DNA of 64,000 nucleotides. Origin: Candidatus Fervidifonticultor secundus (GTDB lineage Bacteria; Sysuimicrobiota; Sysuimicrobiia; Sysuimicrobiales; Humicultoraceae). The stretch spans positions 113,006 to 177,005 of the forward strand of contig JAVKIP010000003.1 of assembly GCA_031459385.1 (NCBI GenBank), in the 5' to 3' direction. The notes beneath the pieces were generated by a model. The model saw only the letters and a list, made by a program, of their open reading frames with translations. It made no database searches and was not told the origin of the DNA. Positions 20,273-35,777 of this stretch are shown here, in pieces. Numbering within the stretch: the first letter of the stretch is position 1; each line of letters opens with the position of its first letter. The translations under genes were made by a program, and so were the position numbers.

Positions 20273-22378
20273 TCAAAACCGGGGGTTATCGTACCAGCGG
20301 TCGATGATCTGATAGGCTGCTCGCAGGAACCGGGCATCCACGCCGCCCCCGGGGTCGAGGACGTACCCGACGCCCTGGTTGATGTGGATGTACTGGCCCA
20401 GCAGCGCCCCGGTGAACTCGCCCGCCTGGTTGATGCTGATGTTGGCCCTCGGGGCGAAAACCACTGCCGACACCCGGTTCTCCTGATCCCACCAGATGGA
20501 CGCGACGCCGGTCTCCTCGTACGACGGGTCGCTGGCGCAGCTCAGCACCTGGATGCGGTCCCCCGGCCAGACGAGCAGCGCGCCCGGCTTGGTGTCGTCC
20601 ACGCCGAACCACGACCGCTGCCCCAGACGGAACGTCCTCCCCACGTGGAAGTACACTTTTCCTCTCCCGGAGATGGCCAGGACCGCGTCCCGCTCGAAGA
20701 TGACGCTGGTGGCATGGATGTGCAGTTCGGCCGCGGGGTTGTCCGGCGTGCTGATCGTCATCCGCTGCCCGGCCCCCGGATGCACCTCATCGTAGCGGAG
20801 TTCCTTCACCAGGCCCTCGGCCTCGCTGTGCACGATGCGCAGCGGCGCATCGTTGTTCGGGTCTGGGCTCGGCGTGCACGGGGGCGGCACGAACGGCGCG
20901 CACAGGACCTCCCGCACGTGCTCCCGCACCACGCCGTCGACCTGCGCGGCACAGCCCTGCGAGCAGTTCACGTCGCGCCCTGCGAAGGCGTTGCCGAAGA
21001 TCGCGCGCGGCTCGGCGTAGATGACCGCCGTATCGGCGACCTTGTCGATATACCCTCGCTCGACGACCGAGGGGTTGGGGTTCAGATCGTCGAGCTGGTC
21101 GTTCCTCGGCGCGATCTCCGCGACGAACCGCCACGGCGCATTCGGCGTGCCGTCTTCCCTGCGCCGGTAGATGCGCCGCTTGAGCACGGTGGCGCTCTCG
21201 GGAATGCCGGTGAGCTTCGTGTACTGGCCGTTCAGGTCCAGTGGACCGGCGGCGGGGCTCGCGGGGCTGCTCCCCACGGACTCGATCTCGGCGGTCGTGG
21301 AACCCGGGTAGCGGTACACGTACGTGACCTTGTACGTGTAGCGGCCAGTCAGTCCCGGGGGCCGGACCGGCGGGTCGGCGGGAGCGGCCGCCGGCGCGCT
21401 CGCCGGCGCGGGCGGGCTGGGCGCCGTGGGGATCTGATGGATGAGCTCGCCGTCGACCCGCGTGTCGAGGTAGGTCTGCGTGCTATTGTCCGGAATCTCG
21501 CCCACGAAGAACCACGGCCCCGTCGCCGCCTGCCCCGCGCGGGTTCTGTAGACTCTCCGCTTGACGATCGCCGCGGCGCCCAGAGGGATATTCGTCAGGG
21601 ACCCGCTCTGGTTCGACAGCGCGACCGCGCCCGTCGCCGGGCTGCCGGCAGACTCGGCGCCGGCTGCGGTCACAAAGGTGACCTTCCAGGAGTAGGTGCC
21701 GGTCAGCCCGCGCGGCGCCTCGTCAGGGTCGATGGCGGTGGGCGTAAACCCGGCAGCGCCGGGGGGCGCCGCGAGGTCGTCGTCCCTCGCCTGGATGGTC
21801 CCCGGGTTGCGCCGTGGCCCCGCAACGGAGATGTCCCGATTGCTGGCCACATCGGCGGTGACAGACGTACCCTGGTCGAGCCGGACGCCCCGCCGGCCGC
21901 AGAACCCGCCGAACGCATCGCCGCCCGGCGGCGAGCGCCGCACCCATACCTCGATCCGACGCCGAGCGCGCCCGACGCTGCTGGTGGCGATGACGTGCCG
22001 CACCTCGTTGTCCTGACAGCCTGTGGCTCCGGGCGCGGCGCCGTCGGTGCACCGCACGGCGACCTGGAACACCCCTGGACCGAATGCGATGGGTGTTCCC
22101 GACCCCGTCCAGCACTCGTCGTTGGAATGGTTCGGGGCGCACACCCAGGGCGGAGTGGTCTGCACGGCCCGGTCGTAGAGCTGCGAAATCGCGTAGGCGA
22201 CGCCGGCCTCCGCCACGTTCAGCGTCTGGATCGCGAGACGGTTGGCCACCGCGCCGTGCAGGTCGCTCATGACCACCGAGAACACGCCGATGCCCATGAG
22301 CCCGACGAGGAGCGAGGTCACGAGCACGAGGGGAAGGGCGAAGCCTGGCTCCCTCCGCAGCCGGCGACACGTCACCAT
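20273..22378 (-). CDS. Module 1 X: large PilX/GspK-like minor pilin (701 aa)
   Basis: ATG at 22378 inside a longer ORF. The N-terminus RREPGFALPLVLVTSLLVGLMGIGVFSVVMSDLHGAVANRLAIQTLNVAEAGV has PilX-N-terminal-domain character: a hydrophobic helix, no Glu5, and ..Q(A/T)..(V/L)AEAG. It ends ...IIDRWYDNPRF and contains an internal ~90-aa duplication. Confidence 0.7.
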   Translation of the reverse strand: MVTCRRLRREPGFALPLVLVTSLLVGLMGIGVFSVVMSDLHGAVANRLAIQTLNVAEAGVAYAISQLYDRAVQTTPPWVCAPNHSNDECWTGSGTPIAFGPGVFQVAVRCTDGAAPGATGCQDNEVRHVIATSSVGRARRRIEVWVRRSPPGGDAFGGFCGRRGVRLDQGTSVTADVASNRDISVAGPRRNPGTIQARDDDLAAPPGAAGFTPTAIDPDEAPRGLTGTYSWKVTFVTAAGAESAGSPATGAVALSNQSGSLTNIPLGAAAIVKRRVYRTRAGQAATGPWFFVGEIPDNSTQTYLDTRVDGELIHQIPTAPSPPAPASAPAAAPADPPVRPPGLTGRYTYKVTYVYRYPGSTTAEIESVGSSPASPAAGPLDLNGQYTKLTGIPESATVLKRRIYRRREDGTPNAPWRFVAEIAPRNDQLDDLNPNPSVVERGYIDKVADTAVIYAEPRAIFGNAFAGRDVNCSQGCAAQVDGVVREHVREVLCAPFVPPPCTPSPDPNNDAPLRIVHSEAEGLVKELRYDEVHPGAGQRMTISTPDNPAAELHIHATSVIFERDAVLAISGRGKVYFHVGRTFRLGQRSWFGVDDTKPGALLVWPGDRIQVLSCASDPSYEETGVASIWWDQENRVSAVVFAPRANISINQAGEFTGALLGQYIHINQGVGYVLDPGGGVDARFLRAAYQIIDRWYDNPRF

Positions 22379-22395
22379 CGTGCGCACCTCGCCTT

Positions 22396-23034
22396 CTATG
22401 GCCCGCGTAGGCTGACGACCGTCTGGTACGTCTGCCGCTCGGGCGGCCGCCCTGCGGCCGATGCCGCCTCCACGGTCATCGTGATCCTCAGCGAGTGGAC
22501 CTGCCGGCGATCGGCGGTCACGTTGCCGTCCCGATCGAGGTAGACGAACCCGCCCCCACTCTGCACGATGGGTGGGGTGAGGGCGATGCGGCTGGGATCC
22601 GGGGCGGTCCGGGTGGTGACCTCGTCGGTGCACGGCTCCACTTCCTCGGGGCGGGTCTCCTGATAGAGCGTCTGGTTCTCCACGTAGTACACGTAGCGCA
22701 GTCGATCGTCGGGAGGTGCGCCGGGTGGGGACCGGTCCTCGAGGATGGCGTGGAAGGCCAGCCGCTGGCCGAATCCGTTGCCGGTGCCGATGACCAGGAA
22801 GCCCTCGGGGCAGGGCCGGTCGGCGTCGTAGTTCACCTGGCGCACCCGGTCGGCCAGCCACGCCATGGCCTGCCGTGCGCGCTCCTGGTCCGAGACCCGG
22901 GCGTGGACGATGAACCGCCCCCTGATGACGGCGCTGAGCAGCAGGTAGAGGCTGCTCACGACCAGCGCGGCGATGGCTAGGCTGGAGACCAGCTCGATCA
23001 GGGTCAGGCCCTCGGCGCGGCGCAGCAGCTTCAC
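22396..23034 (-). CDS. Module 1 W: PilW/GspJ-like prepilin-type minor pilin
   Basis: GTG at 23034 overlaps the upstream stop (GTGA). The class III signal is VKLLRRAEG|LTLIELVSSLAIAALVV. Confidence 0.75.
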   Translation of the reverse strand: MKLLRRAEGLTLIELVSSLAIAALVVSSLYLLLSAVIRGRFIVHARVSDQERARQAMAWLADRVRQVNYDADRPCPEGFLVIGTGNGFGQRLAFHAILEDRSPPGAPPDDRLRYVYYVENQTLYQETRPEEVEPCTDEVTTRTAPDPSRIALTPPIVQSGGGFVYLDRDGNVTADRRQVHSLRITMTVEAASAAGRPPERQTYQTVVSLRGP

Positions 23035-23555
23035 GGCGGGCACCGTCCGGTGAAGATCTCCGCAACGTACGTCGTGGTGGAGGCGTCCGGCGGGTACACA
23101 TCCGGGTCTGGCCGCGGTCCGGGCCCCCAATCGGTCTTGTAGTAGTACACGGTGACGCGCTGCATCGCGGGCCCCGCCGGCTCGACCTCCACGTACCCTG
23201 CGTCGGGAGCCGTCCCGGCCCGGCCCTCGACCACGGCCGGCAGCGCCGGTTCGCCCCGCAGCGTCGGATGCGGGACCTTCCAGCCCGGTTCGGGCAGCGG
23301 GGAGCACAGACGCCGCAGGAACTCGATCTCCCCCTGCATCCACAGGGTGGCTGCGCTGCGATCCTGGGACTGCTGGCGAGTGATGGTCAGGCTGCCGACG
23401 ATCGCGCCCATCATGAGCGGTGTCGCCAGCCCCAGGATCAGCATCGTGACGAGCAACTCGACCAGCGTGAAGCCCCCGCGCCCAGACCAGGACGCGAGGG
23501 CCCTCGCCGTGGCTGCGGGTGCCCTATCCACAGTCGGACGGTCGCCGCGTGTCAT
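23031..23555 (-). CDS. Module 1 V: PilV/GspI-like prepilin-type minor pilin
   Basis: The class III signal is ...WSGRGG|FTLVELLVTMLILGL. Confidence 0.75.
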   Translation of the reverse strand: MTRGDRPTVDRAPAATARALASWSGRGGFTLVELLVTMLILGLATPLMMGAIVGSLTITRQQSQDRSAATLWMQGEIEFLRRLCSPLPEPGWKVPHPTLRGEPALPAVVEGRAGTAPDAGYVEVEPAGPAMQRVTVYYYKTDWGPGPRPDPDVYPPDASTTTYVAEIFTGRCPP

Positions 23556-24078
23556 CGGTGATCGCTCCGGTCTGCGCCGCCACGCAGATGTGGTAGGCCT
23601 TGCCTGTCAGGCTGCTGCGCACCCTGAGGGTCCCGCCGGCCTGCGGAATGCCCGTGGGGTCCCAGGCGAGCGCGGCCGGCAGGGACGACCATTCGACATC
23701 GGCGGGGAAGCAGTAGCGCTTGATCACGGCCGCCGCCTGCGCAATCGTGTACGACGGTCGGTCGACGCATGCCGGATCGCTGGCCGCGAACGTCACATCG
23801 ACGTCGGCGCGGCGCGTCAGCGCTTCCTGCTGGGCGACGCGCAGATCGGACGCCAGGGTGCGCGCCACGGCCAGCGCGCGCTGGTTGCTCTGGTAGTTGC
23901 GGTACGAGGGCAGGCTGAGCCCGAGGACGACGCCCGCCAGCGCGAGGACGAGCACGGTCTCCAGATACGAGACACCACGCTGACCCCTGTAGGGAACCGC
24001 CGCCCCGCCCATCGGCGCCGACGCCTGCGCTCGGCCCTCGCGCGCCGAGCGCCGCTCAGAATCACGAAGAGAGCGCAT
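23524..24078 (-). CDS. Module 1 H: FimT/GspH-like prepilin-type minor pilin
   Basis: ATG 24078 lies 8 nt after the AGAGGG of the upstream riboswitch-like element. The signal is ...YRGQRG|VSYLETVLVLALAGVV, followed by ARTLASDLRVAQQEA (GspH/FimT-like). Confidence 0.7.
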   Translation of the reverse strand: MRSLRDSERRSAREGRAQASAPMGGAAVPYRGQRGVSYLETVLVLALAGVVLGLSLPSYRNYQSNQRALAVARTLASDLRVAQQEALTRRADVDVTFAASDPACVDRPSYTIAQAAAVIKRYCFPADVEWSSLPAALAWDPTGIPQAGGTLRVRSSLTGKAYHICVAAQTGAITDDTRRPSDCG

Positions 24079-24086
24079 CCGCGCGG

Positions 24087-24176
24087 CCCTCTTCGGTAGC
24101 CCGGCCGACCCGCCGACACAGCCGGGTCCCGCAGCTTTGCGCCCCCGGATCGCTCCGGGGTCAGCCCGTTCGGAGG
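24087..24176 (-). promoter_or_regulatory. c-di-GMP-I (GEMM-I)-like riboswitch, copy A, leader of module 1
   Basis: The minus-strand RNA is CCUCCGAACGGGCUGACCCCGGAGCGAUCCGGGGGCGCAAAGCUGCGGGACCCGGCUGUGUCGGCGGGUCGGCCGGGCUACCGAAGAGGG. It shares the GGC(A/U)(A)ACC - hairpin - GGG(A/G)CGCAAAGC - hairpin - GGGYUACCGA layout that I recall from GEMM-I (for example Vc2). Two further copies occur in the window. Confidence 0.7.
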
Positions 24177-24343
24177 TGTCGGCTCGAACCTTCCCTGCAA
24201 GCTCCCTGGACCTTCACCGGAGGTGCCCCACCGCCGGCGAAGGGTTGTGAGTGTTCTCCAGGCCGGCGAGAACTCCTCCTGACGATCCCCTGGGCGATTT
24301 GCCCCGGGGTGAAGGTCCCCGGGGTGATGTTCCCCTGCGGGGC

Positions 24344-24940
24344 TCAGTCCGGAACCTTCTCGGGCCCCCTGTTCCGGTAGGCGTTGATGAACGCCACGAT
24401 CCGGCCCTCGTCGTAGGCGTCGAGCGTCAACAGCCGCTCCCAGGCCGCCACGGCAATGGCGCGGTCGTTCTGCGGCCGCGGCGTCAGGATGACCTTGCTG
24501 CGATACCGCCCCACCAGCTCTTCCAGCTTCTCCACCAGCGCGGTGTCCTTCGGATCCCGGTAGGAGATCCAGATGCCGCCGTGTTCCAGGTTGTGAACGA
24601 CGATCTCGTCGGGGATCGGCTCGCGATGGACGCCCCAGGGCGCCACCTGGTTCCCGGTGTGCCAGCCAGAGGTGGGCGGGTTGGAGTTGTATGGCGGGTG
24701 CGGTTGGCCCAGCGCGATGTGCTGTCGGCCCTGACCCGGGATGCGGTCGCCCGGGCCGGGGCGCAGCGCCGACCAGACGATGAGCGCCACCAGCACGACC
24801 GCACCCGCCGCCACGCTGCCGTAGACCGTGACCTGCCGCCTGCGCCGGCGCGTCTGCTCCTGCCGCTGGGCCTGGCGCCGGGCCTCGCGGGCGGCTTCCC
24901 GACGCTGGTGCTTGGCTTCTCGCGCGGTGGACCCGGCCAT
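24344..24940 (-). CDS. DUF3105 domain-containing membrane-anchored protein
   Basis: It has an Arg-rich N-terminus and one TM helix, then HPPYNSNPPTSGWH and VVHNLEHGGIWISY motifs typical of DUF3105. Confidence 0.7.
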   Translation of the reverse strand: MAGSTAREAKHQRREAAREARRQAQRQEQTRRRRRQVTVYGSVAAGAVVLVALIVWSALRPGPGDRIPGQGRQHIALGQPHPPYNSNPPTSGWHTGNQVAPWGVHREPIPDEIVVHNLEHGGIWISYRDPKDTALVEKLEELVGRYRSKVILTPRPQNDRAIAVAAWERLLTLDAYDEGRIVAFINAYRNRGPEKVPD

Positions 24941-25133
24941 GAGGACGCTCCCTGAGCCTTCCCCCAGAGCCTGCAGGGGAGTTCTTCGATCGTGGTGTAA
25001 TCTTCCCGCCGGCGCGCCTGGCGCACGGCGGTGGACCTGGCACGCTCCCTAGTCTAGCAGTTGCGTCAAGGGCCGGCACTGTCGCCTGGCGGCCTGGATC
25101 GCTTCGGCCACAGGCACTGAGGGACCGACTGGG

Positions 25134-25862
25134 ATGCACCGCCGGTGGGCACTGTTGCTATGGAGCAGGAGTCGCGACGTCCTCCGACAATGGCCACCCC
25201 GGAGCGATCCGGGGGCGCAAAGTCCCAGGGCCCGCGCGATCCGCGGGCTGGCTGCACTGCCGAAGAGGGCGACGTGTGAGTCATGCCAGGGCACACGCGC
25301 TGGCTCGGAGGCGAGGACCATCACGTCCAGGGCGCGAGACGGATTCACCCTGCTGGAAACCCTGATCGTTGTGGCGGTGCTGGGCCTGCTCCTGGGCTTC
25401 TCTGTGCCCCTCTACCGCGGCTCCCTGGCCGACCGCGCCGTCTGGAACGCCGCCTTTCAGGTCCAGAACGACCTCCGGCTGGCGCAGCAGGTCGCCCTCG
25501 CCAGGGCAGGGCGCGGGCCGAGGGTGGAGCTGTGCTTCCTGAGCGCGAACCATGACGCCGGCTACGAGATCTACACGGTGGACTACACCGACCGGTTTGC
25601 GCGGACGGGCGCGGTGATCGGCCAGACGGTGAAGGTCGTCAGGGCCGGCGAGGCCTTCCGCACCGGCCTCGACGTGGACGTGGAGGCAGGGGCAACGCAG
25701 GCCTGCCTGGCCGGTGGCGGCAGACCGGCACTGGTCTACCTGAGCACGGGCAGCCCGACGTTTGCCACCGAGCGGCGCATCACCCTTACCTATCAGGGCC
25801 GCTCGCGGTGCGTCACGATCACCCCCACGACGGGCCGCGCCACGGCGGGGCGGTGTCCGTGA
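25134..25862 (+). CDS. Module 2 H: FimT/GspH-like prepilin-type minor pilin (start unresolved)
   Basis: The signal is ...SRARDG|FTLLETLIVVAVLGLLLG, followed by AAFQVQNDLRLAQQVA. The only canonical in-frame start is ATG 25134, which lies upstream of the riboswitch-like element. The real start is probably downstream (see findings). Confidence 0.6.
   Translation: MHRRWALLLWSRSRDVLRQWPPRSDPGAQSPRARAIRGLAALPKRATCESCQGTRAGSEARTITSRARDGFTLLETLIVVAVLGLLLGFSVPLYRGSLADRAVWNAAFQVQNDLRLAQQVALARAGRGPRVELCFLSANHDAGYEIYTVDYTDRFARTGAVIGQTVKVVRAGEAFRTGLDVDVEAGATQACLAGGGRPALVYLSTGSPTFATERRITLTYQGRSRCVTITPTTGRATAGRCP
25181..25269 (+). promoter_or_regulatory. c-di-GMP-I (GEMM-I)-like riboswitch, copy B, leader of module 2
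   Basis: CCUCCGACAAUGGCCACCCCGGAGCGAUCCGGGGGCGCAAAGUCCCAGGGCCCGCGCGAUCCGCGGGCUGGCUGCACUGCCGAAGAGGG. It has the same conserved blocks as copies A and C, with a different but still self-complementary second hairpin. Confidence 0.7.
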
Positions 25863-26413
25863 GGGCGGTCCGTGGCAGCCGGACCGGCCCTCCCCGACTG
25901 CGCGCCGCCGGCTTTACCACCTTCGAGGTCCTGCTGGCCGCCGTGGTGGTGGCGCTCGTGGTGGCGTTCACGATCCGGGTGGTTGTCGCGACACTGGGGC
26001 TCGTGGGAAGTTCCGAGCGGGACCCGCAGCACGGCGCGCGCGCCCGGTCGCAGGCGACCGAGTGGATCCAGGCAGCGATCGAATACAGCCGGGCCGTCGG
26101 GTTCGACGCGCTGCGCAGGGCGCCGACGTGCGCTGCGCTGACCGCGCTGTCGCCATGTCACTTCTGGATTCCGCCGGCGGTCGACAGCGCGGATAGGCCG
26201 TTCGACCTGGGGCCGGCGCTGCCTTCTGGCTTCGACTGCGGCCATGTGCAACTGGCGCAGTGGAGCGCCAGCCCGCCGCCCGGCGGCGATCTCGACAACC
26301 TGCTGTCGCTGACCGTGGAGGTCTACCGGTCCCGCACGTCCTGCGACGCCGGCGGGACCGGGCAGGCGTTCATGACCGCTCAGACCGCCATCGCCAGGCG
26401 GCAGGGACCGTAG
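25859..26413 (+). CDS. Module 2 V: PilV/GspI-like prepilin-type minor pilin
   Basis: GTG 25859 overlaps the upstream stop (GTGA). The signal is VRAVRGSRTGPPRLRAAG|FTTFEVLLAAVVVALVV. Confidence 0.75.
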   Translation: MRAVRGSRTGPPRLRAAGFTTFEVLLAAVVVALVVAFTIRVVVATLGLVGSSERDPQHGARARSQATEWIQAAIEYSRAVGFDALRRAPTCAALTALSPCHFWIPPAVDSADRPFDLGPALPSGFDCGHVQLAQWSASPPPGGDLDNLLSLTVEVYRSRTSCDAGGTGQAFMTAQTAIARRQGP

Positions 26414-26427
26414 ACGAGGAACCGGGC

Positions 26428-27018
26428 GTGGTCAGGGCGACCGGCCGGGTGCGCGAGCGGGGCATGACCCTGATGGATGTGGTGGTGGGCCTGGCGCTCA
26501 TGACCGTCGCGGCCCTGGGGATCTTCGCCGGCTTCAAGGGCGCGCTCACCGGCTGGACCGTGGCCCAGCAGGTCACCGCGGAATCCCACAACGCGCGCTT
26601 CGTGCTCGAGTACGTGGCGCGGCTGCTCCGGATGGCCGGGAACGAGTACGCCGGCGGTCCGCCGCTGGCCGTGACGAACCCAGACGAGGTCGTCTTCCTG
26701 GGCAACGTGGACGACGACCCGCAGGTGGAGTGCTACAGCATCTACCGCGACGGGCAGGGCGTCGTCCGCATCTTCGCGATGGAGCTGGGGGGCGCGGACC
26801 CGCCGCCGGCGGCGTGCACCGGCGCCCGGGCCGCGGGAGCGGGCCAGCCGCTGACGACCCAGGTCGAGGCGCGGAACATCACCGTGGAAGACCTGCGGCT
26901 CTCGTACAGCCCGACGGTGCTGCCGCGACGGGTGACGCTCGAGATCCGCGTGCGCGGGGTCGGCTCACCCGGACCGTTGACGATGTCCACCCAGGTGTTC
27001 TTGCGCGCAGGACAGTAG
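26428..27018 (+). CDS. Module 2 W: PilW/GspJ-like prepilin-type minor pilin
   Basis: GTG 26428. The signal is VVRATGRVRERG|MTLMDVVVGLALMTVAALG, with Asp rather than Glu at +5. Confidence 0.7.
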   Translation: MVRATGRVRERGMTLMDVVVGLALMTVAALGIFAGFKGALTGWTVAQQVTAESHNARFVLEYVARLLRMAGNEYAGGPPLAVTNPDEVVFLGNVDDDPQVECYSIYRDGQGVVRIFAMELGGADPPPAACTGARAAGAGQPLTTQVEARNITVEDLRLSYSPTVLPRRVTLEIRVRGVGSPGPLTMSTQVFLRAGQ

Positions 27019-27029
27019 GGGGCGAGCCC

Positions 27030-28826
27030 ATGGGACGCGAGGCGCACACCCACGGCGCGCACGGGCACGGCCCGCACGCACGCCGCGGGCGGGGCGAGCG
27101 GGGCACCGCGATGCTGATGGCCCTGGTGGTGGTCCTGATCCTGGCCCTGCTGACCATCGCCCTGGCCAACGTCGCCGTCACCGAGTACTCCACGGCCGCC
27201 GCGCTGGATCGCAGCCTAAAGGCCCTGATCGGCGCCGAAGGGGCGGGCGAGGCCCTCATCGCGTTCCTGCGCACCCAGGCAGACTGGACAAACCTGGCAA
27301 CCACCGGTGGCTGGACGAACGGCAGCCTGCCCGCCGCCCTCCGGCAGGGCACGCTGCCGGGCAGCGACGTCAGCTATGAGATTCGCGTGCGCCACCTGTC
27401 CGGCCCGGGTTACGATCCGGCGGTCAACATCCTGGTGCGGGTCGTGGGCGAGGCGCGCGGACAGAGCCGGGCCGTCGAGTTCCTGCTGCACAGGGTGGGC
27501 CCGGCAGACTTCATCTTCTATTCGGTAGACAACGTGGACATCTGCTCGATCGCGGGCGGCGGCAGCCTGCAGTTCCACGGCTCGGCCTACTTCCAGGCCG
27601 ATCTGTGTCTCAAGGGGGGCGCCGAGTCGGGCTTCTACAACGACCGCCCGGTGTCCACGGCGCACCGCGACGCCAACGGGAACCAGCTCTTCCTCAACCA
27701 TCTGTACGTGCAGGGCAACCTGGACGGCACCGGCAACCCCTCCATCGGGACCGCCTCGCAGCACTACTTCTTCCTGCACGTGGCCGGGACGCTTACCAAC
27801 AGCAACAAGTTCTTCTATGACAACTTCGACCGGAACGTGAAAGACCCGTTCTATCCCGCCGTGGTGCAGATCGTCGCGCAGGCCGCCAGCAACCCGGCCA
27901 ATGCGGGGCGACAGCAGGGCACACAGATGGAGCTGGCCATCTGCGAGTACAACCCGGCCGGCAACACGTGGGCGAAGGTCTACACCCCGAACCTGAGCCT
28001 GCAGGCCGGCAAGGTCTTCTACCTGCCGCGCCCTACGGTCGAGACCGGCTACTGGCTCGCGGACACGAGCCCCTGCCCGAACTCCGGGACACTCCCCGAC
28101 GCGGTCCGCGCCTCGTCGCTCTACGCCCTCTACTGGGACGGACGGTCGAGCCCGGCCAGCGGGACCAGCAACCTGGTGATCCCGGTGTCCGACCGGCCGA
28201 TCTACGTGCCGGGGAAAGTGCTGCACGGGCAGAACGTCCGGTTCGAGGGCAAAGGGCAGATCGTGGCAGCCAACCAGCCCGGAGCCGGCGTCAGGCTCGC
28301 CGACGGCACGCGGGTGGCGGTAGCCGCGCAGAGCACGTGTGCCTGGAACCTGGACGACCCCACCGCTGCCAACGCCACCGGCAACGACTGCGGGGACAGC
28401 AACAATGCGGGCTACTGGGTCAGAGCGAAGGTCTCGCCATGCCGCCAGCCCCCGGGGCCGGGGCCGTTCGCCAACGACAACCCCGCCTCGACGTTCGTCC
28501 GGCGCTATGGCGCCAACGCCGCCGGCGATGTGGTCGTGTTCGTCGTCAACGGGAGTGCCGGGTCGCGGCTGAACGCCAACGCCTGCGACCAGGAGATGAA
28601 CCTGATGGCCGTCGTCGGCGACGCGGCCTCGAGCGCAGGCTTCCGGATGGCCTACAAGCTGCAGTGGTACGGCGTGTTGATGACCAGGCAGATGCGCCTG
28701 GGACAGGTGCCCGACTTCTGGCAGATGCCGGATACGTTCGGCGAGCTCCCCGGCTGGATGAAGAACATCCTGCTCGGGCAGAACTCCGGGGTGGTCCGCG
28801 TGGAGCGCTGGCGGGAGCTCTTCTAA
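27030..28826 (+). CDS. Module 2 X: large PilX/GspK-like minor pilin (598 aa)
   Basis: ATG 27030. It has a His-rich leader (HTHGAHGHGPH), then RG|TAMLMALVVVLILALLTIALANVAVTEYSTAAALDRSLKALIGAEGAGEA. The C-terminus is ...VRVERWRELF. Confidence 0.7.
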   Translation: MGREAHTHGAHGHGPHARRGRGERGTAMLMALVVVLILALLTIALANVAVTEYSTAAALDRSLKALIGAEGAGEALIAFLRTQADWTNLATTGGWTNGSLPAALRQGTLPGSDVSYEIRVRHLSGPGYDPAVNILVRVVGEARGQSRAVEFLLHRVGPADFIFYSVDNVDICSIAGGGSLQFHGSAYFQADLCLKGGAESGFYNDRPVSTAHRDANGNQLFLNHLYVQGNLDGTGNPSIGTASQHYFFLHVAGTLTNSNKFFYDNFDRNVKDPFYPAVVQIVAQAASNPANAGRQQGTQMELAICEYNPAGNTWAKVYTPNLSLQAGKVFYLPRPTVETGYWLADTSPCPNSGTLPDAVRASSLYALYWDGRSSPASGTSNLVIPVSDRPIYVPGKVLHGQNVRFEGKGQIVAANQPGAGVRLADGTRVAVAAQSTCAWNLDDPTAANATGNDCGDSNNAGYWVRAKVSPCRQPPGPGPFANDNPASTFVRRYGANAAGDVVVFVVNGSAGSRLNANACDQEMNLMAVVGDAASSAGFRMAYKLQWYGVLMTRQMRLGQVPDFWQMPDTFGELPGWMKNILLGQNSGVVRVERWRELF

Positions 28827-28929
28827 CCTTATCACTCGCAGGTAGCAGACGCCCGGGCGCCCGGCCGTGCCCTCCCGTCGTCGCCCCTCCCGCCCGGCTG
28901 GGCGGGTCTAGGACCGCGGTCTCCGGGGC

Positions 28930-29469
28930 ATGACCCTCCCGGGGGGACTCCGGTCAGAGGAGTGGGATCGCGTGCGGTGCCTTTGGCAGGCGGCCTGGCG
29001 TGGCCACACAGCTCCGACGGCCGCCGGCGTCACAGTCCTGGAGCTCGGGGTCGCGCTGGGCCTGGGGGCGTTGCTCCTGGCCCTAGCGATGCCACTGTAC
29101 TTCGGCTTCGTGCGCGAGCGCCGGGTGGCCCGCGTGGCCGAGGACCTGGCCGGCCTGCTGCGCTTCGCACAGCAGCGGGCGGTGGCCCAGTCGGTCGACA
29201 GCTGCGGCGTGCAGGTCGTCACCCTGAGCTCCCGCGCCGAGGTCCGGCGGATCCCGCGGGAGGCGGACGGCGACTGCGCCGACCCGGTGACGATCCGGGT
29301 CGGCGAGCCGTACCCGCAGGGTGTCGCCGTGGCCGAGGTCACCGTCGAGTTCTCCAGTGCGGGATCCCTGGCCACGGGCAGCGCGACCTCGATCGGCATC
29401 GCCTCGGGGGGTCGCACGCGCACGGTGTCGGTGCAGGCCGCCACGGGAAGGGTGGAGATCACGCCATGA
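28930..29469 (+). CDS. Module 3 H: FimT/GspH-like prepilin-type minor pilin
   Basis: The signal is ...HTAPTAAG|VTVLELGVALGLGALLLA, followed by AEDLAGLLRFAQQRA. An alternative start is GTG 28972, preceded by GAGGAG at 9 nt. Confidence 0.7.
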   Translation: MTLPGGLRSEEWDRVRCLWQAAWRGHTAPTAAGVTVLELGVALGLGALLLALAMPLYFGFVRERRVARVAEDLAGLLRFAQQRAVAQSVDSCGVQVVTLSSRAEVRRIPREADGDCADPVTIRVGEPYPQGVAVAEVTVEFSSAGSLATGSATSIGIASGGRTRTVSVQAATGRVEITP

Positions 29470-29996
29470 CGCCGCGCAAGCCGGATGGCGGGTTCACGCT
29501 GATCGAGGTGGTCATCGCCATGCTGCTGCTTGGCATCGTGGCGCTGGGGAGCAGCGGCGTGGTCCGGTCGCTGGGCCTGCTGGGGCGCTCGCAGATCTCC
29601 AGCGACCGCCACGAGCGGCCCGCGCGGCTGCGCACGCTGGCCATGGAGTACATCCAGGCCGAACTGGAGTACCTGCAGAACCGCTCGTACTACGCCCTGC
29701 GCGACGCCTCGGCGTGCAACCCGCCCGGGGCGCCCACGCCGATCGCCGCGGCGCGCCGCGTCCCGAGCAGCTACCTGGACGCCAGCGAGCCTCGCCTGCC
29801 GGCCTCGTTCGCAGCGGCGGACATCATCATCACGACGGATCCGACCATCACCGCGCCGGCGTCCCCGCCCCTGGACTGCCGGCCCAGGGTCATGAGCGTC
29901 ACCGTCTACCTGGCGCCCGGCGACCTGCCGGCTGTGCCCGGCGGCGCAGGCGGCACCCCCTTCATCCGCGGCGCCACGGCCCGGTCGTGGCGATAG
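29466..29996 (+). CDS. Module 3 V: PilV/GspI-like prepilin-type minor pilin
   Basis: ATG 29466 overlaps the upstream stop (ATGA). The signal is MTPRKPDGG|FTLIEVVIAMLLLGIVALG. Confidence 0.8.
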   Translation: MTPRKPDGGFTLIEVVIAMLLLGIVALGSSGVVRSLGLLGRSQISSDRHERPARLRTLAMEYIQAELEYLQNRSYYALRDASACNPPGAPTPIAAARRVPSSYLDASEPRLPASFAAADIIITTDPTITAPASPPLDCRPRVMSVTVYLAPGDLPAVPGGAGGTPFIRGATARSWR

Positions 29997-30025
29997 CCAC
30001 CGGACGCCGCCGGGAGGACGGAACG

Positions 30026-30661
30026 ATGCCACGGCACGCGACGCGGACGGCTGACCGGCGGGGCGAGCGGGCATTCACCGTGCTGGAAGTGCTGGTGGCG
30101 CTCAGCCTCTTCGGGGTGGTCCTGCTCACGGGCTTTGCGGCGTTCAACGCCAGCTACCGCGGTCTGGTGGCGGGCAAGGAGCTGGCCGACGAGCACCAGA
30201 ACGCGCGGCTGGTCCTGGAGTGGATCACCCGCCGGATTCGCCTTGCCGGCATCGGCGCGCCCCCCGGCACCACGGCCTTCTTCAGCGAAGCCGGTACCAG
30301 CGCCCTGGCGTTCGTCGCCGATACCGACGCCGACGGGGTACTCGAGTGGCGCCGGTACTGCCTGGATGCCGCCGCAGGCGCGGTCCGCGAGCAGGTGCTC
30401 GAACCCGCACCCACCCCGCTGCCGTCCCCCGGCGACGCCTGCGCCGGCGCGACCATCACCTCCCAGGGGCTGCATGCGCTGCGCGTCTCCCTGCTGCAGT
30501 TCTCGTACTTCAACGGGCAGGAGGCGGCAACCAGCGCCCTGTCCCAGATCCGCCGGGTCCGGATCGTGCTGGGCCTGGACTCGAACCGCTCGGGCGCCTA
30601 CGACGCCGCCCAGGACGTCACCTTCACGATGGACGCCGTGCTGCGGAACCCGCTCCAGTAG
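30026..30661 (+). CDS. Module 3 W: PilW/GspJ-like prepilin-type minor pilin
   Basis: ATG 30026. The signal is MPRHATRTADRRGERA|FTVLEVLVALSLFGVVLL, with Ala instead of Gly at -1. Confidence 0.7.
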   Translation: MPRHATRTADRRGERAFTVLEVLVALSLFGVVLLTGFAAFNASYRGLVAGKELADEHQNARLVLEWITRRIRLAGIGAPPGTTAFFSEAGTSALAFVADTDADGVLEWRRYCLDAAAGAVREQVLEPAPTPLPSPGDACAGATITSQGLHALRVSLLQFSYFNGQEAATSALSQIRRVRIVLGLDSNRSGAYDAAQDVTFTMDAVLRNPLQ

Positions 30662-30696
30662 CGGGGACGCCGTCTGCCGCCGGAGGGCATGTGACC

Positions 30697-32568
30697 ATGG
30701 ACAGCGCGCGACCCACAACGTCGGTCAGGCGATCGCCCGGCGAGGCCGGGCTGGCGCTGGCCCTCGTGCTCTTGACCATCAACGTCATCCTGATCGTCAC
30801 CGCGACCCTGGTGGCCATCGCGCTGAACGAGTACCAGGCCGCGGCTAGCGGCGAGCGGTCGCGCCAGGCATTTCAGCTGGCCGAGGCCGGGCTGGAGAAG
30901 GCGATCTACGAGCTAAAGCGCGACCTGGACTGGACCGACTCCGGCGCATCCGCAGCCGCCACCAGGAACCTCAACGACCCGCGGGAGTGGGCACCGCTGT
31001 GGGACGGGAGCGCGAACCTCGTCGACACGCCGTTCCCGGCGGGGGCGACGATCGGCGAGATCACCGTCGAGCTGTGCCGCGACGACAACTTCGGCGACGG
31101 CAACGGCTGCCCGGGCGTGCCCGCGCCGACCGTGGCCGGGTGCACCCCGAATGCCTGCATCTGGGTGCGGGCCACCGGGCGCATCCCCGGGCTGGCCGCG
31201 CGGCAGATCGAGTTCCTCCTGAGCCAGATGGCGCCGGGGTACGACCTGATCAACTACTCGGCGAGCCCCATCAACATCGGCGCCGGCGGCGGCGGCAACG
31301 GCAGTTTCATCCTCCACGGCTCGCTCTACATCGCCTCGTGCCTCGACCCCGACGGGGGCGGTCCCCAGCCGTGCGTGGGTCTCGTCATGCAGGGTGACGG
31401 CGCCATCCTCAACGACGTGCCGTATCCCACGCCGGGCGACCCGGACACCACCCCACCCTACAACAACAAGGTCTATGTGGTCGGTCAGATCCAGGGCCAG
31501 GGCAACTCGTGGCAGATCGGCCTGGACAGCCAGCCCATGCAGGGCGTCTATGCCACCCTGGGCTGGTCCAGCGGCTACGAGAACCAGATCGACGCGCTCG
31601 ACAAGGGGACCGTGGTGCCATTTGTACCCTTCCCCGACCCCTCGAAGCTCTGTGAGCCGGGGGCCCCCGGCGATCCACCGCGGTGCCTAATGAACCGGCT
31701 CAACCTGCCACCGGCCGACGGCGGCATCACGCCCATCAACGCCGACCTGGCGTACGTCTGCACGGCCGCCACCTGCACCACTGCGGCCTCGTGGACGCCG
31801 GTGTACATCCGGGGGCCCCTGGCCGACCCCCTCACGCCGCTGCGGCTCTCGGCGAACAACCCGACGCGCACCCGGGTCGTGATTCCCGACCGCAACCCCG
31901 ACGGCTCGCCGGCGGTGAACTGCACGACGACGCCGTCGACGTGCAATGTCGCCGCCGGGACCGGCAGCGTGAACGGGTCGGGGAACTTCTCCCTGGTCTA
32001 CAACGGCTACGCGGGCGCCGGCCAGGTGAACCTGTGGACGCAGTCCGGGGCCGATGCCTTCATCCACACCACCAAGCACGTTCGGATCGACGGCGACGTG
32101 CGCTACGCCGGCCGCACGACGTTCCTGATCGAGAACGCCGACGACGTGGGCGCGGCGATGCCGGCACTGGAGATCCGCGGGTCGGTCACGCCGCTGTGCC
32201 GGGCCAGCCAGACCACCTGCGCCCAGACGTTCGGTCAGGCCAACGGGGACACCTACGCGTTCGCGGTCGGCCCCAAGTGCACGGGCGCGCCGCCCAGCGG
32301 TTCGCTGGTCTGCACGCCGACCGGGGGCGGCGTCTACGTCCGGGGGTCGGGGATCGAGCTGAACCTGGTGGTGCTGGCCCACGGGACGCTCAAGAACGAC
32401 AACCCGCAGACCTGGTACGGCATGTTCATCGCGGGCCTGCTGGACTGGGACAACAACCCGTCCATCTATCCCGTGGCCAACCTGAAGGCGAACCTCCCGC
32501 CCGGCATCGCTCCGCTGGCCAAGCCGGGGTTCGGGCTGCAGATCACGCGATGGCGCGAGGTCTTTTAG
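30697..32568 (+). CDS. Module 3 X: large PilX/GspK-like minor pilin (623 aa)
   Basis: ATG 30697. The N-terminus is ...RRSPGEAG|LALALVLLTINVILIVTATLVAIALNEYQAAASGERSRQAFQLAEAGLEKA. The C-terminus is ...LQITRWREVF. Confidence 0.7.
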   Translation: MDSARPTTSVRRSPGEAGLALALVLLTINVILIVTATLVAIALNEYQAAASGERSRQAFQLAEAGLEKAIYELKRDLDWTDSGASAAATRNLNDPREWAPLWDGSANLVDTPFPAGATIGEITVELCRDDNFGDGNGCPGVPAPTVAGCTPNACIWVRATGRIPGLAARQIEFLLSQMAPGYDLINYSASPINIGAGGGGNGSFILHGSLYIASCLDPDGGGPQPCVGLVMQGDGAILNDVPYPTPGDPDTTPPYNNKVYVVGQIQGQGNSWQIGLDSQPMQGVYATLGWSSGYENQIDALDKGTVVPFVPFPDPSKLCEPGAPGDPPRCLMNRLNLPPADGGITPINADLAYVCTAATCTTAASWTPVYIRGPLADPLTPLRLSANNPTRTRVVIPDRNPDGSPAVNCTTTPSTCNVAAGTGSVNGSGNFSLVYNGYAGAGQVNLWTQSGADAFIHTTKHVRIDGDVRYAGRTTFLIENADDVGAAMPALEIRGSVTPLCRASQTTCAQTFGQANGDTYAFAVGPKCTGAPPSGSLVCTPTGGGVYVRGSGIELNLVVLAHGTLKNDNPQTWYGMFIAGLLDWDNNPSIYPVANLKANLPPGIAPLAKPGFGLQITRWREVF

Positions 32569-32610
32569 GGGTCTAGGGCGGCCCGGAAACGGGCAAAGAG
32601 TTCCAGGGCT

Positions 32611-32700
32611 CCTCCGACAAAGGCTACCCCGGAGCGATCCGGCGGGCGCAAAGCTCCAGAACCCGGGTTCTCCCAGGTTGGCTGAGCTACCGAAGAGGGG
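32611..32700 (+). promoter_or_regulatory. c-di-GMP-I (GEMM-I)-like riboswitch, copy C, leader of module 4
   Basis: CCUCCGACAAAGGCUACCCCGGAGCGAUCCGGCGGGCGCAAAGCUCCAGAACCCGGGUUCUCCCAGGUUGGCUGAGCUACCGAAGAGGGG. GTG 32707 follows after 6 nt. Confidence 0.7.
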
Positions 32701-32706
32701 AGAGTT

Positions 32707-33231
32707 GTGGGAACTGCCTTCTGCAGAGCCACGCGCACGGGCTCGAGCCCGTCCGCTCCGCACCGCACGCGCCGAATCCCACACGGTGCTCGTCAGGCGC
32801 CCTCTGGGCGCTGGCAGGCCGGGTACACGGTCCTGGAGCTGCTCATCGTCTCGGCGATCGGCCTGCTGGTGCTGTCGTTCGGGGTCGGCAGCATCAGCCG
32901 GGCCATGGCCCGCGAGGAGCTGGATGGCTGGGCCCGGGCCATCGCCGTCGAACTCACGGCCGCCCAGCAGGCGGCCATGACGCGCCGGACCAGCGTCACG
33001 GTGTCGTTCCAGAACAACGCCTTCATCGTGGTGGCCAGCGGCGGCGGCACGCTGCGCGCGCAGGACCTGCCGTCCCACATCAGCTTCGGCGCCACGCTGC
33101 AGACGGTGACGTTCGACCGGCGGGGGGTGCCAGGCGGCGCGTCCTCCGTATCGCTGACGAGCACGCGCGCCGGGAAGACCTACACCATCACGATCCAGCC
33201 CAACACGGGACGGGTGACCGCAGATGGCTGA
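32707..33231 (+). CDS. Module 4 H: FimT/GspH-like prepilin-type minor pilin
   Basis: GTG 32707 follows directly after the AGAGGGG of the leader element. The signal is ...SGRWQAG|YTVLELLIVSAIGLLVL, followed by ARAIAVELTAAQQAA. Confidence 0.7.
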   Translation: MGTAFCRATRTGSSPSAPHRTRRIPHGARQAPSGRWQAGYTVLELLIVSAIGLLVLSFGVGSISRAMAREELDGWARAIAVELTAAQQAAMTRRTSVTVSFQNNAFIVVASGGGTLRAQDLPSHISFGATLQTVTFDRRGVPGGASSVSLTSTRAGKTYTITIQPNTGRVTADG

Positions 33232-33661
33232 CCGCCCGCGCGCCCGCCGCGCCAGCGGCGGGTTCACCCTGATCGAGGTCGTCGTCGCCATGGCCGTGCT
33301 CTCCCTGGTGGCCACCACCGCGCTGGGCGGGCTGCTGTTCACCATGACCCAGACCCGGCGCGGCTTCGACCGGGCCCAGGCCGCGGCATGGGTCCAGGCC
33401 GAGCTGGACTTCCTGCGCACCATGGGGTACGGGCTGGCGCCGGGGACGCGCACTGTGCCCACTGACGGCTATCTGGCCAACAGCGACCTGCAGGAACCGC
33501 GGATTCCCGACGGGTTCGACCGGGCCGAGATCGTCGTCGAGGACCTCACCGGCAGCCTGGGCATTCCCCTGAAGTCCATGACGGTGCGCCTGTACCAGAC
33601 GCCGACCTCCCCGCCCTACACGATCCTCGTCACGTATGTGGCGAACTTCGACTACCCGTGA
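33224..33661 (+). CDS. Module 4 V: PilV/GspI-like prepilin-type minor pilin
   Basis: The signal is MADRPRARRASGG|FTLIEVVVAMAVLSLV. It overlaps the H gene by 8 nt. Confidence 0.8.
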   Translation: MADRPRARRASGGFTLIEVVVAMAVLSLVATTALGGLLFTMTQTRRGFDRAQAAAWVQAELDFLRTMGYGLAPGTRTVPTDGYLANSDLQEPRIPDGFDRAEIVVEDLTGSLGIPLKSMTVRLYQTPTSPPYTILVTYVANFDYP

Positions 33662-34371
33662 GCGGACCAGCGATGCGCCGGCCTGGGGCAGCACGGCACG
33701 GACAGGCGGGGATCTCCCTCGTCGAGGTCATGGTGGCCATGGTCATCATGACGGTCGTCATCGGGACGATCGCGACGCTGGTGGGCGCGTCGGTCCGCAG
33801 CAAGATGATCGTGGCCAGCCGGTCCTCCGACACGGAGACGGCACGCCAGACGCTGGAGATGATGTCCGAGCGGCTGCGCAACGCGGGGCTGAACATCGAC
33901 CCTGCGGCCCAGCCCGACCGCTGCGACGACATGGTCGTGGCCAAGGACCCGGCCCTGCGGCCGACGGCGACCCAGCTCTACGTGGCCGGCGAGATCTTCA
34001 ACTCGAACACGACCGCGGGCGACCAGGTGATCGTGCTGGGCTACCGGCTCACCGGCGGCCGGATCGTCGAGGACCGCAGCGCGTGCGGCGTATGGGCTCC
34101 GACGACCAGCGATGTCTCGAACCCCGGGATCACGGTGACGAGCCTGCTCTTCCGGTACTTCGGCTCAAGCGGCGGCGAGATCACCGTACCCACAACCGAC
34201 GAGGAGGCGATCCGGAGCATCCGCGTGGTGCAGATCAGCCTCACGGTCCGGGCCGAGGAGGGACGGTCGGGCGCCCAGATCCAGCGCTTCAGCCGGCAGG
34301 TGATGCTGCGCAACCCCCGGCCGGACCGCAGTGGCTGGCTGCCGCCGGCCGGATGGGAGACGAATCCATGA
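33658..34371 (+). CDS. Module 4 W: PilW/GspJ-like prepilin-type minor pilin
   Basis: GTG 33658 overlaps the upstream stop (GTGA). The signal is ...ARHGQAG|ISLVEVMVAMVIMTVVIG. Confidence 0.75.
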   Translation: MSGPAMRRPGAARHGQAGISLVEVMVAMVIMTVVIGTIATLVGASVRSKMIVASRSSDTETARQTLEMMSERLRNAGLNIDPAAQPDRCDDMVVAKDPALRPTATQLYVAGEIFNSNTTAGDQVIVLGYRLTGGRIVEDRSACGVWAPTTSDVSNPGITVTSLLFRYFGSSGGEITVPTTDEEAIRSIRVVQISLTVRAEEGRSGAQIQRFSRQVMLRNPRPDRSGWLPPAGWETNP

Positions 34372-35777
34372 AAAGAGGCACGATGCGGCCCGCCGGCGCC
34401 GGGCGCCTGCGCCGCACGCCGGCGGGCGGCCAGGCTGGCGCGGCGCTGCTCTCGGTGGTGCTCTTCCTGCTGCTGATCCTGATGGTCACGGTGGGTGTCA
34501 TGGCGGTGGTCCGCAGCGACCTGGCGGCCGGCATCCGCCAGCAGCAGGCCGTGCAGGTCTTCAACGTGGCGGAGGCGGGCGTGCACTACGCCATCGCGCG
34601 CCTGCAGACCTCTGGGGCGAACCGGTACGACGGGGCCACGGTCCCCATCACCGACGGCAGCACCACCATCGGGACCGCCACCATCCAGGTCCGCTGCCTG
34701 GACGGCACCCTCCCGAGCGCCAGCGCCTGCAACGGTGCCGAGCCGGCCTACCGGCGGATCGCCTCCACCGGAACGCTCACGGTGGCAGGACCCCGTCGGG
34801 TGGTGACGGCGGTGGTCGAGGGCACGACCTCAGTGACACGGACCTACGCGGTGTGCGCCTACGACGCCCTGACCCTCGACCAGCAGGTGACGGTCTACGG
34901 GTCGGTGGGCACCAACGGCATTATGACGCTCAGCGGGCCCAACAACCTCAACCGTGCGGCGATCTGCGACTCCACCCCGGGCGGGCTGGGCGGCCGGTGC
35001 GGCACGCCCAATCCCGCACCCGCCAGCTCGTTCACGGCCGGCGCCTCCGCCGTGGGGACCATCACGTGCAACGGGGGCGGCTGTGCCAACCAGGTGGAAG
35101 GGCCGACGACACCCAACCAGCCGGCCGGGTCGGTATGCCCGACGGTCACGCTCCCGGGCTGGGGGCCCCCGGGCACCACGCCCCTGTCGGTGCCCCTCGG
35201 CAGCACGGTGTTCGCCAACCCCGCCACCAACTACGGCTCCGTGACGCTGGCGGATACGCCCGGCAACCCCAACCCCTGCCCGTCGGACCCCGCGCAGCGC
35301 GCCACGCTGGTGCTGGACGCGGGCAGCGACCCCACCGCGACGGTCACGTTCCAGATGGCCACGCTGTCGGTCGGCAAGTGCGCCCGCGTCGAGATCCGCG
35401 GGCAGGGGAAGGTCGAACTGCGGTTGCTCGCGCCGACCACCACGGCGCTGCGCACCGTCCAGCGCTCGGTCCTGGGGACCACCTCGCAGACCGTCGGCAG
35501 CGAGGTGGCCGTGGAGGGCCACCGGTTCACGGTCAAGGTGGTGTCCACCCACTCGACCGCCGCCGTCGACTTCAACCAGTCGGGCTTGATCGCCGGCACG
35601 TTCATCGTGCCCAACGGCGGGTTCCACCTGGACCAGGCACAGATCACCAACGGCGCGATCCTGGCGAGGGCCGTCGACTTCGACCAGGGCACCACCTTCA
35701 CGTGGGACCCGCGGTCGATCATCGGCGACCAGGTCTACGGCGACTTTCGCCGGCTGCGAGCCTGGAAGGACCAGTAG
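34368..35777 (+). CDS. Module 4 X: PilX/GspK-like minor pilin (469 aa)
   Basis: ATG 34368 overlaps the upstream stop (ATGA). The N-terminus is ...PAGGQAG|AALLSVVLFLLLILMVTVGVMAVVRSDLAAGIRQQQAVQVFNVAEAGVHYA. The C-terminus is ...FRRLRAWKDQ. Confidence 0.7.
   Translation: MKRGTMRPAGAGRLRRTPAGGQAGAALLSVVLFLLLILMVTVGVMAVVRSDLAAGIRQQQAVQVFNVAEAGVHYAIARLQTSGANRYDGATVPITDGSTTIGTATIQVRCLDGTLPSASACNGAEPAYRRIASTGTLTVAGPRRVVTAVVEGTTSVTRTYAVCAYDALTLDQQVTVYGSVGTNGIMTLSGPNNLNRAAICDSTPGGLGGRCGTPNPAPASSFTAGASAVGTITCNGGGCANQVEGPTTPNQPAGSVCPTVTLPGWGPPGTTPLSVPLGSTVFANPATNYGSVTLADTPGNPNPCPSDPAQRATLVLDAGSDPTATVTFQMATLSVGKCARVEIRGQGKVELRLLAPTTTALRTVQRSVLGTTSQTVGSEVAVEGHRFTVKVVSTHSTAAVDFNQSGLIAGTFIVPNGGFHLDQAQITNGAILARAVDFDQGTTFTWDPRSIIGDQVYGDFRRLRAWKDQ

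Follow-up and report, generated by a model that had tools for sequence, protein, structure and literature searches.

The 64-kb stretch of contig JAVKIP010000003.1 analyzed here (hereafter the window, meaning the whole stretch) carries three copies of a leader element of about 90 nt, each placed in front of a set of type IV pilin-like genes. The locus raises the question of what kind of element has been repeated, which ligand it would recognize, and whether the three copies would drive their genes in the same direction. The elements belong to a known class of RNA switch in a new host and represent no new kind of element: very probably, they are three canonical class-I (GEMM-I) aptamers for cyclic di-guanosine monophosphate (c-di-GMP), located in the leaders of paralogous minor-pilin operons and wired through the closing helix, P1, in a different way in each copy. 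A switch selecting among alternative pilin modules is plausible from the sequence, and its direction is weighed below copy by copy.

Three class-I c-di-GMP riboswitches in front of pilin modules

Riboswitch A lies on the minus strand (24176->24087), whereas riboswitches B (25181-25269) and C (32611-32700) lie on the plus strand. A search with Rfam cmscan at gathering thresholds, covering 128 kb against 4227 families, returned exactly three matches in the window, all to RF01051 (c-di-GMP-I). Copy A scored 43.0 bits (24092-24176), copy B 47.3 bits (25182-25264) and copy C 43.1 bits (32612-32694), each over the complete model (1-87 of 87) and above the gathering score of 35 bits, with E-values of 4e-6 to 4.4e-5 that are far beyond chance. 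An initial annotation of the window had placed three copies of about 90 nt at these positions, had assigned them to GEMM-I and had located each directly 5' of the first gene of a pilin module. The sequence and the full-length Rfam matches bear out the positions, the comparison with the Rfam model upholds the family assignment, and a GspH-type or prepilin-type gene does follow each copy. No other Rfam family, the class-II c-di-GMP riboswitch included, passes its own gathering threshold in the window. With permissive settings (E<=1), cmscan revealed no fourth copy in the window and no degenerate riboswitch before module 3, where the interval 28827-28929 has no Rfam match; outside clan CL00126, the sole extra match at this cutoff was a weak one to Metazoa_SRP.

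Each copy spans about 90 nt, from CCUCCGA to CCGAAGAGGG. In a three-way alignment, conservation sets in abruptly at CCUCCGA and stops at GAAGAGGG, and the flanks are not conserved. The invariant blocks are CCUCCGA, GGC(N)1-2ACC, CCCCGGAGCGAUCCGG(C)GG, GGGCGCAAAG and CU(A/G)CCGAAGAGGG, in agreement with those listed as invariant in the initial annotation. Between GCAAAG and CCGAAG, the sequence is different in every copy; the earlier claim that these unrelated distal sequences each fold into a hairpin of their own is confirmed by the cmscan alignments and by a field-by-field parse, which assign a separate helix to each copy.

Aptamer architecture and ligand-contact nucleotides

The helices are named as in the crystal structure: P1 is the closing helix, P2 the conserved GNRA-capped hairpin, and P3 the variable hairpin. 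Position numbers are those of Vc2, applied to the window copies according to our reading of the Rfam consensus. In all three copies, P2 consists of a GC/GC two-pair stem, an internal loop of 3-4 nt, and a CCCCGGA/UCCGG(C)GG stem capped by GCGA, a GNRA loop of the GYRA type; GCAAAG follows directly after this stem. The parse located the AAA linker, G20, A47, C92 and the C44-G83 nucleotides in every copy. The G20 equivalent is an unpaired G, the C92 equivalent is the first C of CCGAA, the C44 equivalent is the C preceding GCAAAG, and G83 corresponds to the second G of a GG bulge in P3; an inter-helical C44-G83 pair is predicted from the presence of these two nucleotides. Position 19, just 5' of G20, varies among the copies (G, U, A). 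P1 is formed by CCUC-CG with CG-AA-GAGG, that is, CG/CG, an AA bulge and CCUC/GAGG, and the end blocks of the element are invariant because both are strands of this helix. The number of contiguous P1 pairs after the bulge is 4 in A, 7 in B and 6 in C.

This organization corresponds to that described for the class, in which two adjacent hairpins, one conserved, with a 2-bp stem, a 3-4-nt internal loop, a 6-7-bp stem and a GNRA loop, and the other variable but covarying, are joined by a linker that is almost always AAA (PMC1950547). Published work shows that G20 makes a Hoogsteen contact to one ligand guanine, that C92 forms a Watson-Crick pair with the other, and that A47 contacts the ligand (PMC4744006, PMC6140456, PMC5888326), and the inter-helical C-G pair of Vc2 is universally conserved (PMC4744006). 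The contact nucleotides point to c-di-GMP as the probable ligand of all three copies.

Relatives and covariation

About 100 related aptamers were fetched from genomes and metagenomes. The scans were run with DNA patterns: a scan of a genome collection for a GYRA-loop P2 followed by GGGCGCAAAG yielded 56 loci from many phyla, and a metagenome scan for the CCUCCGA subtype yielded 56 further loci, 41 of them distinct. An alignment of the four GspH-like paralogues contained no stretch conserved enough to seed a genome scan. RNAalifold recovered the GEMM-I fold from 43 non-redundant sequences independently of the Rfam model, with compensatory changes in 11/20 pairs. The closing pair of P2 is A-U in 31 of these sequences and G-C in the other 12, with zero mismatches, even though the scan pattern permitted any R/Y combination at this pair.

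The MAFFT alignment placed the 5' strand of P1 out of register, because the junction varies in length, and was unusable for P1 counts. For the P1 test, every sequence was anchored at its 5' CG(A) and at its 3' CCGAA. In 46 distinct relatives, the strands of the same RNA form 4.57 of 7 pairs, versus 3.08±0.18 when partners are swapped, and 0/2000 shuffles reach the observed value. Strand pairs as different as CCUC/GAGG, GGUGU/ACACC, AAGUGU/ACACUU, CCCCCU/AGGGGG and CCUCUC/GAGAGG occupy this position. Covariation among related aptamers is thus observed in P1 as well as in P3, and the compensatory pattern that had been read from the three window copies is real and extends to about 40 non-redundant relatives. 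Prepilin genes follow many relatives of the CCUCCGA subtype.

An identical 25-nt core, CCCGG-R-GYRA-Y-CCGG-GGGCGCAAAG, recurs in distant groups of the genome scan (L001-L056), including Bipolaricaulota, Thermotogaceae-labelled metagenome-assembled genomes (MAGs), Elusimicrobiota, Omnitrophota, Geobacter, Brocadia and ANGP1. Locus L050 carries two GEMM-I copies 574 nt apart.

P1 as the proposed switching element

In the proposed mechanism, c-di-GMP bound at the three-helix junction would stabilize P1, and P1 would act as a switching element that each copy uses differently.

Expression platforms of relatives: A scan for intrinsic terminators made no call downstream of copies A, B or C. In a first class of platforms among the relatives, CGAAGAGGG supplies the 5' arm of a hairpin, which finishes with GCCCUCUU and a U-run. 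The loci of this class include L002, L013, L024, L039, L060, L069, L078 and L108, and in many of them a prepilin gene lies about 100 nt downstream. This layout of mutually exclusive aptamer and terminator, foreseen in the first GEMM paper (PMC1950547), is established for the Geobacter pilM ON switch (PMC9262584). A reading of GAAGAGGG purely as a Shine-Dalgarno (SD) sequence was rejected as the sole explanation, since P1 covaries and relatives use this strand as the 5' arm of true terminators. A second class has a longer platform, GAGGAAGCAC...GUGCUUCC...U-run, and then a start region complementary to the aptamer 5' strand. Behind the same CCUCCGA-type aptamer, a well-conserved second platform family, CCGAAGAGGAAGCAC...GAGUGCUUCC...CGCUCGC plus a U-run, continues into GGGG-AUG-CCCGUYGG, a start region complementary to the aptamer 5' strand CCGAACGGGC; it was seen at L058, L059, L062, L064, L067, L068, L070, L076, L079, L083, L085, L086, L093, L094, L096, L098, L099 and L103, and a search of these loci up to 700 nt from the start of the aptamer detected no prepilin motif.

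Copy A: The leader of copy A contains an alternative hairpin, CGAAGAGGGC...GCGCUCUCUUCG (24065-24095, minus strand), which captures the 3' strand of P1, encloses GAGGG and the ATG at 24078, and is followed by the weakly U-rich UGAUUCU. Its folding energy is -17.4 kcal/mol, and 21/2000 shuffled tails fold as well. The hairpin is part of the unconstrained minimum-free-energy (MFE) structure, which is 5-7 kcal/mol better than the fold in which P1 is enforced. The terminator scan left it uncalled because the U-run is too weak; the same arrangement, with true terminators, is found in L002, L013, L024, L039, L060, L069 and other loci. In the proposed mechanism, the hairpin (CGAAGAG/CUCUUCG, with CUCUUCG at 24065-24071) would capture the P1 3' strand in the ligand-free RNA and bury the SD-like GAGGG together with the ATG at 24078, while c-di-GMP, by stabilizing P1, would prevent the hairpin and turn the module on. 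Copy A is predicted from this folding model to be an ON switch, in which the hairpin may act on translation rather than on termination.

Copy B: The P1 helix of copy B extends outward by pairing of 25174-25180 with 25270-25276 (CGUCCUC/GAGGGCG); P1 has 7 contiguous pairs and a duplex energy of -15.5 kcal/mol. Downstream, UCGGAGG (25305-25311, plus strand) is a perfect complement of the P1 5' strand CCUCCGA; TCGGAGG is expected by chance about 0.014 times per 130 nt of the window. This element contains the SD sequence GGAGG, 8 nt before an in-frame AUC at 25320. The AUC is the only start candidate of the first gene of module 2 (the ATG at 25283 is in a different frame), and starting there gives an 8-residue leader, ITSRARDG|F, like a normal prepilin leader. 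The unconstrained MFE structure pairs 25181-25187 with 25305-25311, a duplex of -13.3 kcal/mol. According to this model, the P1 5' strand would pair with UCGGAGG in the ligand-free state and hold the SD, and binding of c-di-GMP would free it. Copy B is tentatively modelled as an ON switch acting by SD release.

Copy C: P1 of copy C is built by CUCCUC (32609-14) and GAGGGG (32695-700), so that the SD overlaps the 3' strand of the helix. An outer extension, which brings the structure to 32604-32723 (plus strand), pairs CAGGG (32604-08) with UUCUG (32719-23) and encloses the SD GAGGGGA and the GUG at 32707. Orthologous leaders were obtained from three syntenic loci (L113, L114, L118). In all four leaders, GAGGGGA is followed by a 5-6-nt spacer and GUG, the frame is open to the pilin motif, and synonymous TGC/TGT changes accompany a conserved leader peptide, V-R/G-x-T-S/F-C...; GUG 32707 is therefore the real start. 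RNAalifold of the four leaders closes the aptamer by CG/CG plus CUCCUC/GAGGGG and adds an outer helix of CAGGG with YCCUG at codons 6-7, enclosing the SD and the GUG. The pairing probability of the P1 3' strand with downstream sequence is <=0.2, and no competing partner is predicted. With the SD and GUG held inside P1 and its extension, c-di-GMP would lock the ribosome-binding site; folding thus suggests, tentatively, a translational OFF switch.

Pilin modules and their conservation

Each copy leads into a GspH/FimT-type minor pilin, after which come one or two prepilin-type proteins with an N_methyl domain, and a large protein. Module 1 (20273-24078, minus strand) contains a GspH/FimT-like minor pilin (23524-24078), a prepilin-type pilin (23031-23555) and a large protein (frame 20273-23101, start uncertain), with Pfam matches to GspH and N_methyl, a weak match to DUF7305, and NCBIfam matches. 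Module 2 (25320-28826, plus strand) begins with a GspH-like pilin (25320-25862), followed by 25808-26413, 26260-27018 and 26730-28826 (Pfam, NCBIfam). Module 3 (28930-32568, plus strand) has a GspH-like pilin (28930-29469), an N_methyl pilin (frame 29321-30661) and a PilX_N-type large protein (frame 30220-32568), the only large protein with a PilX_N match, and a weak one. Module 4 (32707-35777, plus strand) includes a GspH/ComGD-like minor pilin (32707-33231), a prepilin-type pilin (33224-33661) and a large protein (frame 33636-35777), again from Pfam and NCBIfam. The first-gene pilins match Pfam GspH and, partially, the NCBIfam models of GspH and ComGD. The riboswitch-led clusters are FimU-PilV-PilW-PilX-like. 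A sequence search for solved-structure relatives of the large module proteins gave none at E<=1, and the starts listed for these open reading frames (ORFs) are over-extended. With 26-40% mutual amino-acid identity, the four modules are old paralogues, module 1 being closest to module 4 and module 2 to module 3.

The boundaries of module 4 are ambiguous, in that a 713-aa ORF (33636-35777) competes with the overlapping ORFs 33658-34371 and 34331-35812. The 713-aa ORF is homologous along its length to the large protein of module 1; the corresponding stretch of syntenic relatives is annotated as two genes, one of about 233 aa with N_methyl and then one of about 470 aa.

The window comes from an uncultured bacterium of high GC content that is related to Candidatus Sysuimicrobiota; of the named organisms represented in the fetched loci, Candidatus Fervidifonticultor quintus, a member of that phylum, is the nearest relative. 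The paper describing Ca. Sysuimicrobiota makes no mention of pili, c-di-GMP signalling or riboswitches. Module 4 orthologues were found by one protein search with the downstream pilin, after which their loci were fetched. In a related Sysuimicrobiota-type MAG (L119), synteny with the window runs along a 3.15-Mb contig from the L25 gene as far as the pyrophosphatase gene, and this contig presents, in order, a riboswitch (53.6 bits), a module, a module without a riboswitch, a riboswitch (45.3 bits) and a module. This layout matches the window arrangement B-M2-M3-C-M4; nothing in L119 corresponds to A-M1. L039 carries, directly before a module 3-like module, a riboswitch with 83% identity to copy B. 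Together, the L119 layout and the L039 arrangement suggest that modules 2 and 3 arose by tandem duplication behind a single riboswitch; module 3, lacking an aptamer, probably shares a transcript with module 2 through read-through. The three loci that supplied the copy C leaders hold syntenic module 4 orthologues up to the same pyrophosphatase gene, and their riboswitches score 42.6-45.3 bits. A more distant module 4 orthologue with 58% amino-acid identity and the same gene order (L116/L117, GCA_031458515.1, ~2870-3010) has a pilin with a short 8-residue prepilin leader after a GGGAGGG SD, and no riboswitch is found before it in L116; the riboswitch has therefore been gained or lost within the lineage.

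Polarity of the switches

Read together, the three platforms would place modules 1 and 2+3 under ON control (copies A and B) and module 4 under OFF control (copy C), so that a single messenger would swap the minor-pilin or tip set that primes the type IV pilus. If true, pilus-tip cassettes would be selected reciprocally at the RNA level, in a phylum without a cultured member. As a whole, this combined assignment is rather unlikely. Several observations also weigh against the main reading of the three copies and their platforms. All polarities are derived from thermodynamic folding and from alignments that are small or closely related. Of 16 predicted c-di-GMP riboswitches in Clostridioides difficile, 5 do not regulate (PMC6366702), and a good aptamer score is therefore no guarantee of function. 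For copy A, the hairpin has no canonical U-run, and the start could be the ATG at 24012 rather than 24078, because P1 also covers GAGG. For copy B, the strong extended P1 may form in the ligand-free RNA, the L119 orthologue of this leader lacks UCGGAGG, and the first gene of module 2 (frame 25053-25862) has no in-frame ATG, GTG or TTG from the aptamer up to the G|FTLLE processing site, an anomaly that gene decay, a frameshift or assembly error, or initiation at a non-canonical codon could each explain. For copy C, the close kinship of the four sequences leaves the outer helix with almost no covariation, and the conserved YCCUG also encodes conserved Ser-Cys codons, which could be an alternative reason for its conservation.

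The best-surviving alternative is that all three copies are ON switches, in which case high c-di-GMP would induce every minor-pilin set and there would be no reciprocal choice. Most relatives of the CCUCCGA subtype that stand before prepilin genes have the layout in which a terminator hairpin takes up the P1 3' strand, predicting ON, and the published pilus riboswitches, the class-II switch of C. difficile pilA1 and the cGAMP (cyclic GMP-AMP) switch of Geobacter pilM, are likewise ON (PMC6366702, PMC9262584). Copy C speaks against uniform polarity, with SD and GUG inside the ligand-stabilized closing helix, there and in three orthologues, and with no downstream partner predicted for its P1 3' strand. 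Uniform ON control is possible, though on balance somewhat unlikely.

Alternatively, one or more copies, most likely B, could be an evolutionary relic that no longer regulates or that stands before a decaying gene. The missing canonical start in module 2, where only AUC is available, would fit this reading, as would the riboswitch-less module 4 orthologue in L116, the precedent of non-functional copies in C. difficile (PMC6366702), and the fact that the B-type platform differs completely between the window, L039 (a terminator) and L119 (neither element). Set against these points, copy B has the top Rfam score of the three and intact contact nucleotides, the riboswitch at the same position in L119 scores even 53.6 bits, and a GGAGG is located 8 nt before the AUC, with a leader peptide that looks normal. 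A relic is improbable. A GEMM-I specificity variant that responds to 3'3'-cGAMP (GEMM-Ib, A20) or to the unknown ligands of c-di-GMP-I-GGC or -UAU is highly improbable: RF03167 (c-di-GMP-I-GGC) does give a lower E-value than RF01051 for all copies at permissive thresholds and position 19 does vary among them, but its 38.4-44.8 bits stay below its gathering threshold of 59 in every copy, whereas that of RF01051 is passed, and all copies have A at 47, C at 92, and at position 20 a G in place of the A of cGAMP riboswitches (PMC6140456). The reading of three c-di-GMP-I aptamers, each with its own use of P1, stands above these variants.

Comparison with known systems

At the sequence level, the window elements have every defining feature of c-di-GMP-I. 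Like Vc2 (RF01051), they form a three-helix junction with P1, a P2 made of a 2-bp stem, a 3-nt internal loop and a GNRA-capped helix, and a variable P3, and they share with it the AAA linker, G20/A47/C92 and the nucleotides of the C44-G83 pair. As in that family, each copy belongs to the 5' leader of a gene concerned with the cell surface or motility. Unlike Vc2, the window copies have a GCGA tetraloop of the GYRA type, as in the subgroup of GEMM members that usually lack a tetraloop receptor (PMC1950547), and no 11-nt receptor is evident in them, although no explicit search for the receptor motif was made. The junction is GGCGCAAAG and not GACGCAAAG, and P1 carries a conserved AA bulge, with CCUC/GAGG doubling as an anti-SD/SD-like pair. 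Vc2 itself is a translational switch that works through P1 (PMC9262584).

The Geobacter pilM riboswitch, a GEMM-Ib transcriptional ON switch, likewise stands upstream of type IV pilus genes, and its aptamer excludes a hairpin that captures the P1 3' strand, as in copy A and many relatives. It differs in having A at the G20 equivalent and sensing cGAMP, where the window copies have G20, and the hairpin of copy A, unlike that of pilM, lacks a proper U-run and encloses the start codon. C. difficile Cdi-2-4, a class-II riboswitch upstream of pilA1, provides a leader RNA for c-di-GMP control of a type IV pilin, a function that is predicted for the window; it has an unrelated fold and serves a major pilin, whereas the window combines GEMM-I with minor-pilin sets. 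In Synechocystis, the sets pilA5-6 and pilA9-12 are inversely regulated by c-di-GMP, a control not known to operate via riboswitches, of which none has been identified in cyanobacteria (PMC10124867). The window is predicted to be similar in subjecting alternative minor-pilin sets to one messenger, possibly in opposite directions, and the inverse control in Synechocystis is a physiological precedent for the mixed-polarity reading.

GEMM elements were linked to pilus genes as early as 2007 (PMC1950547), several copies per genome are common, with 12 class-I copies in C. difficile 630, and class-I switches can be ON or OFF, so that polarity needs case-by-case determination (PMC6366702). Particular to the present locus are the host lineage, a position ahead of paralogous minor-pilin sets instead of machinery or major-pilin genes, the conserved RS-M-M-RS-M layout (RS, riboswitch; M, module), and the three wirings of P1. 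Knowledge of riboswitch classes is unchanged, and any Rfam-based annotation pipeline would flag these elements. The finding extends a textbook riboswitch class to an uncultured Sysuimicrobiota-like lineage and predicts c-di-GMP control of surface and pilus behaviour there; with its conserved layout and three P1 wirings, the locus is a compact natural system in which one aptamer is re-used with different, possibly opposite, outputs.

Neighbouring genes

No pilus machinery or GGDEF/EAL genes were found among ten large flanking ORFs tested, all of which are housekeeping, and no sigma-70-like promoter was found anywhere in 23400-33400. Riboswitch A is directly preceded, on its own strand, by a DUF3105 gene (24344-24940, minus strand), which sits between the divergent leaders of A and B; the copy A transcript could therefore arise by read-through from this gene. 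A 510-aa ORF (18424-19956, minus strand) has ribosomal L25/TL5 domains at residues 294-474 only, and its start is probably over-called, as is typical of ORF listings at 71% GC. An ORF at 54394-55929 (minus strand) combines SLH domains with a BsuPI domain, a hint on the type of cell envelope that is relevant to how type IV pili cross it.

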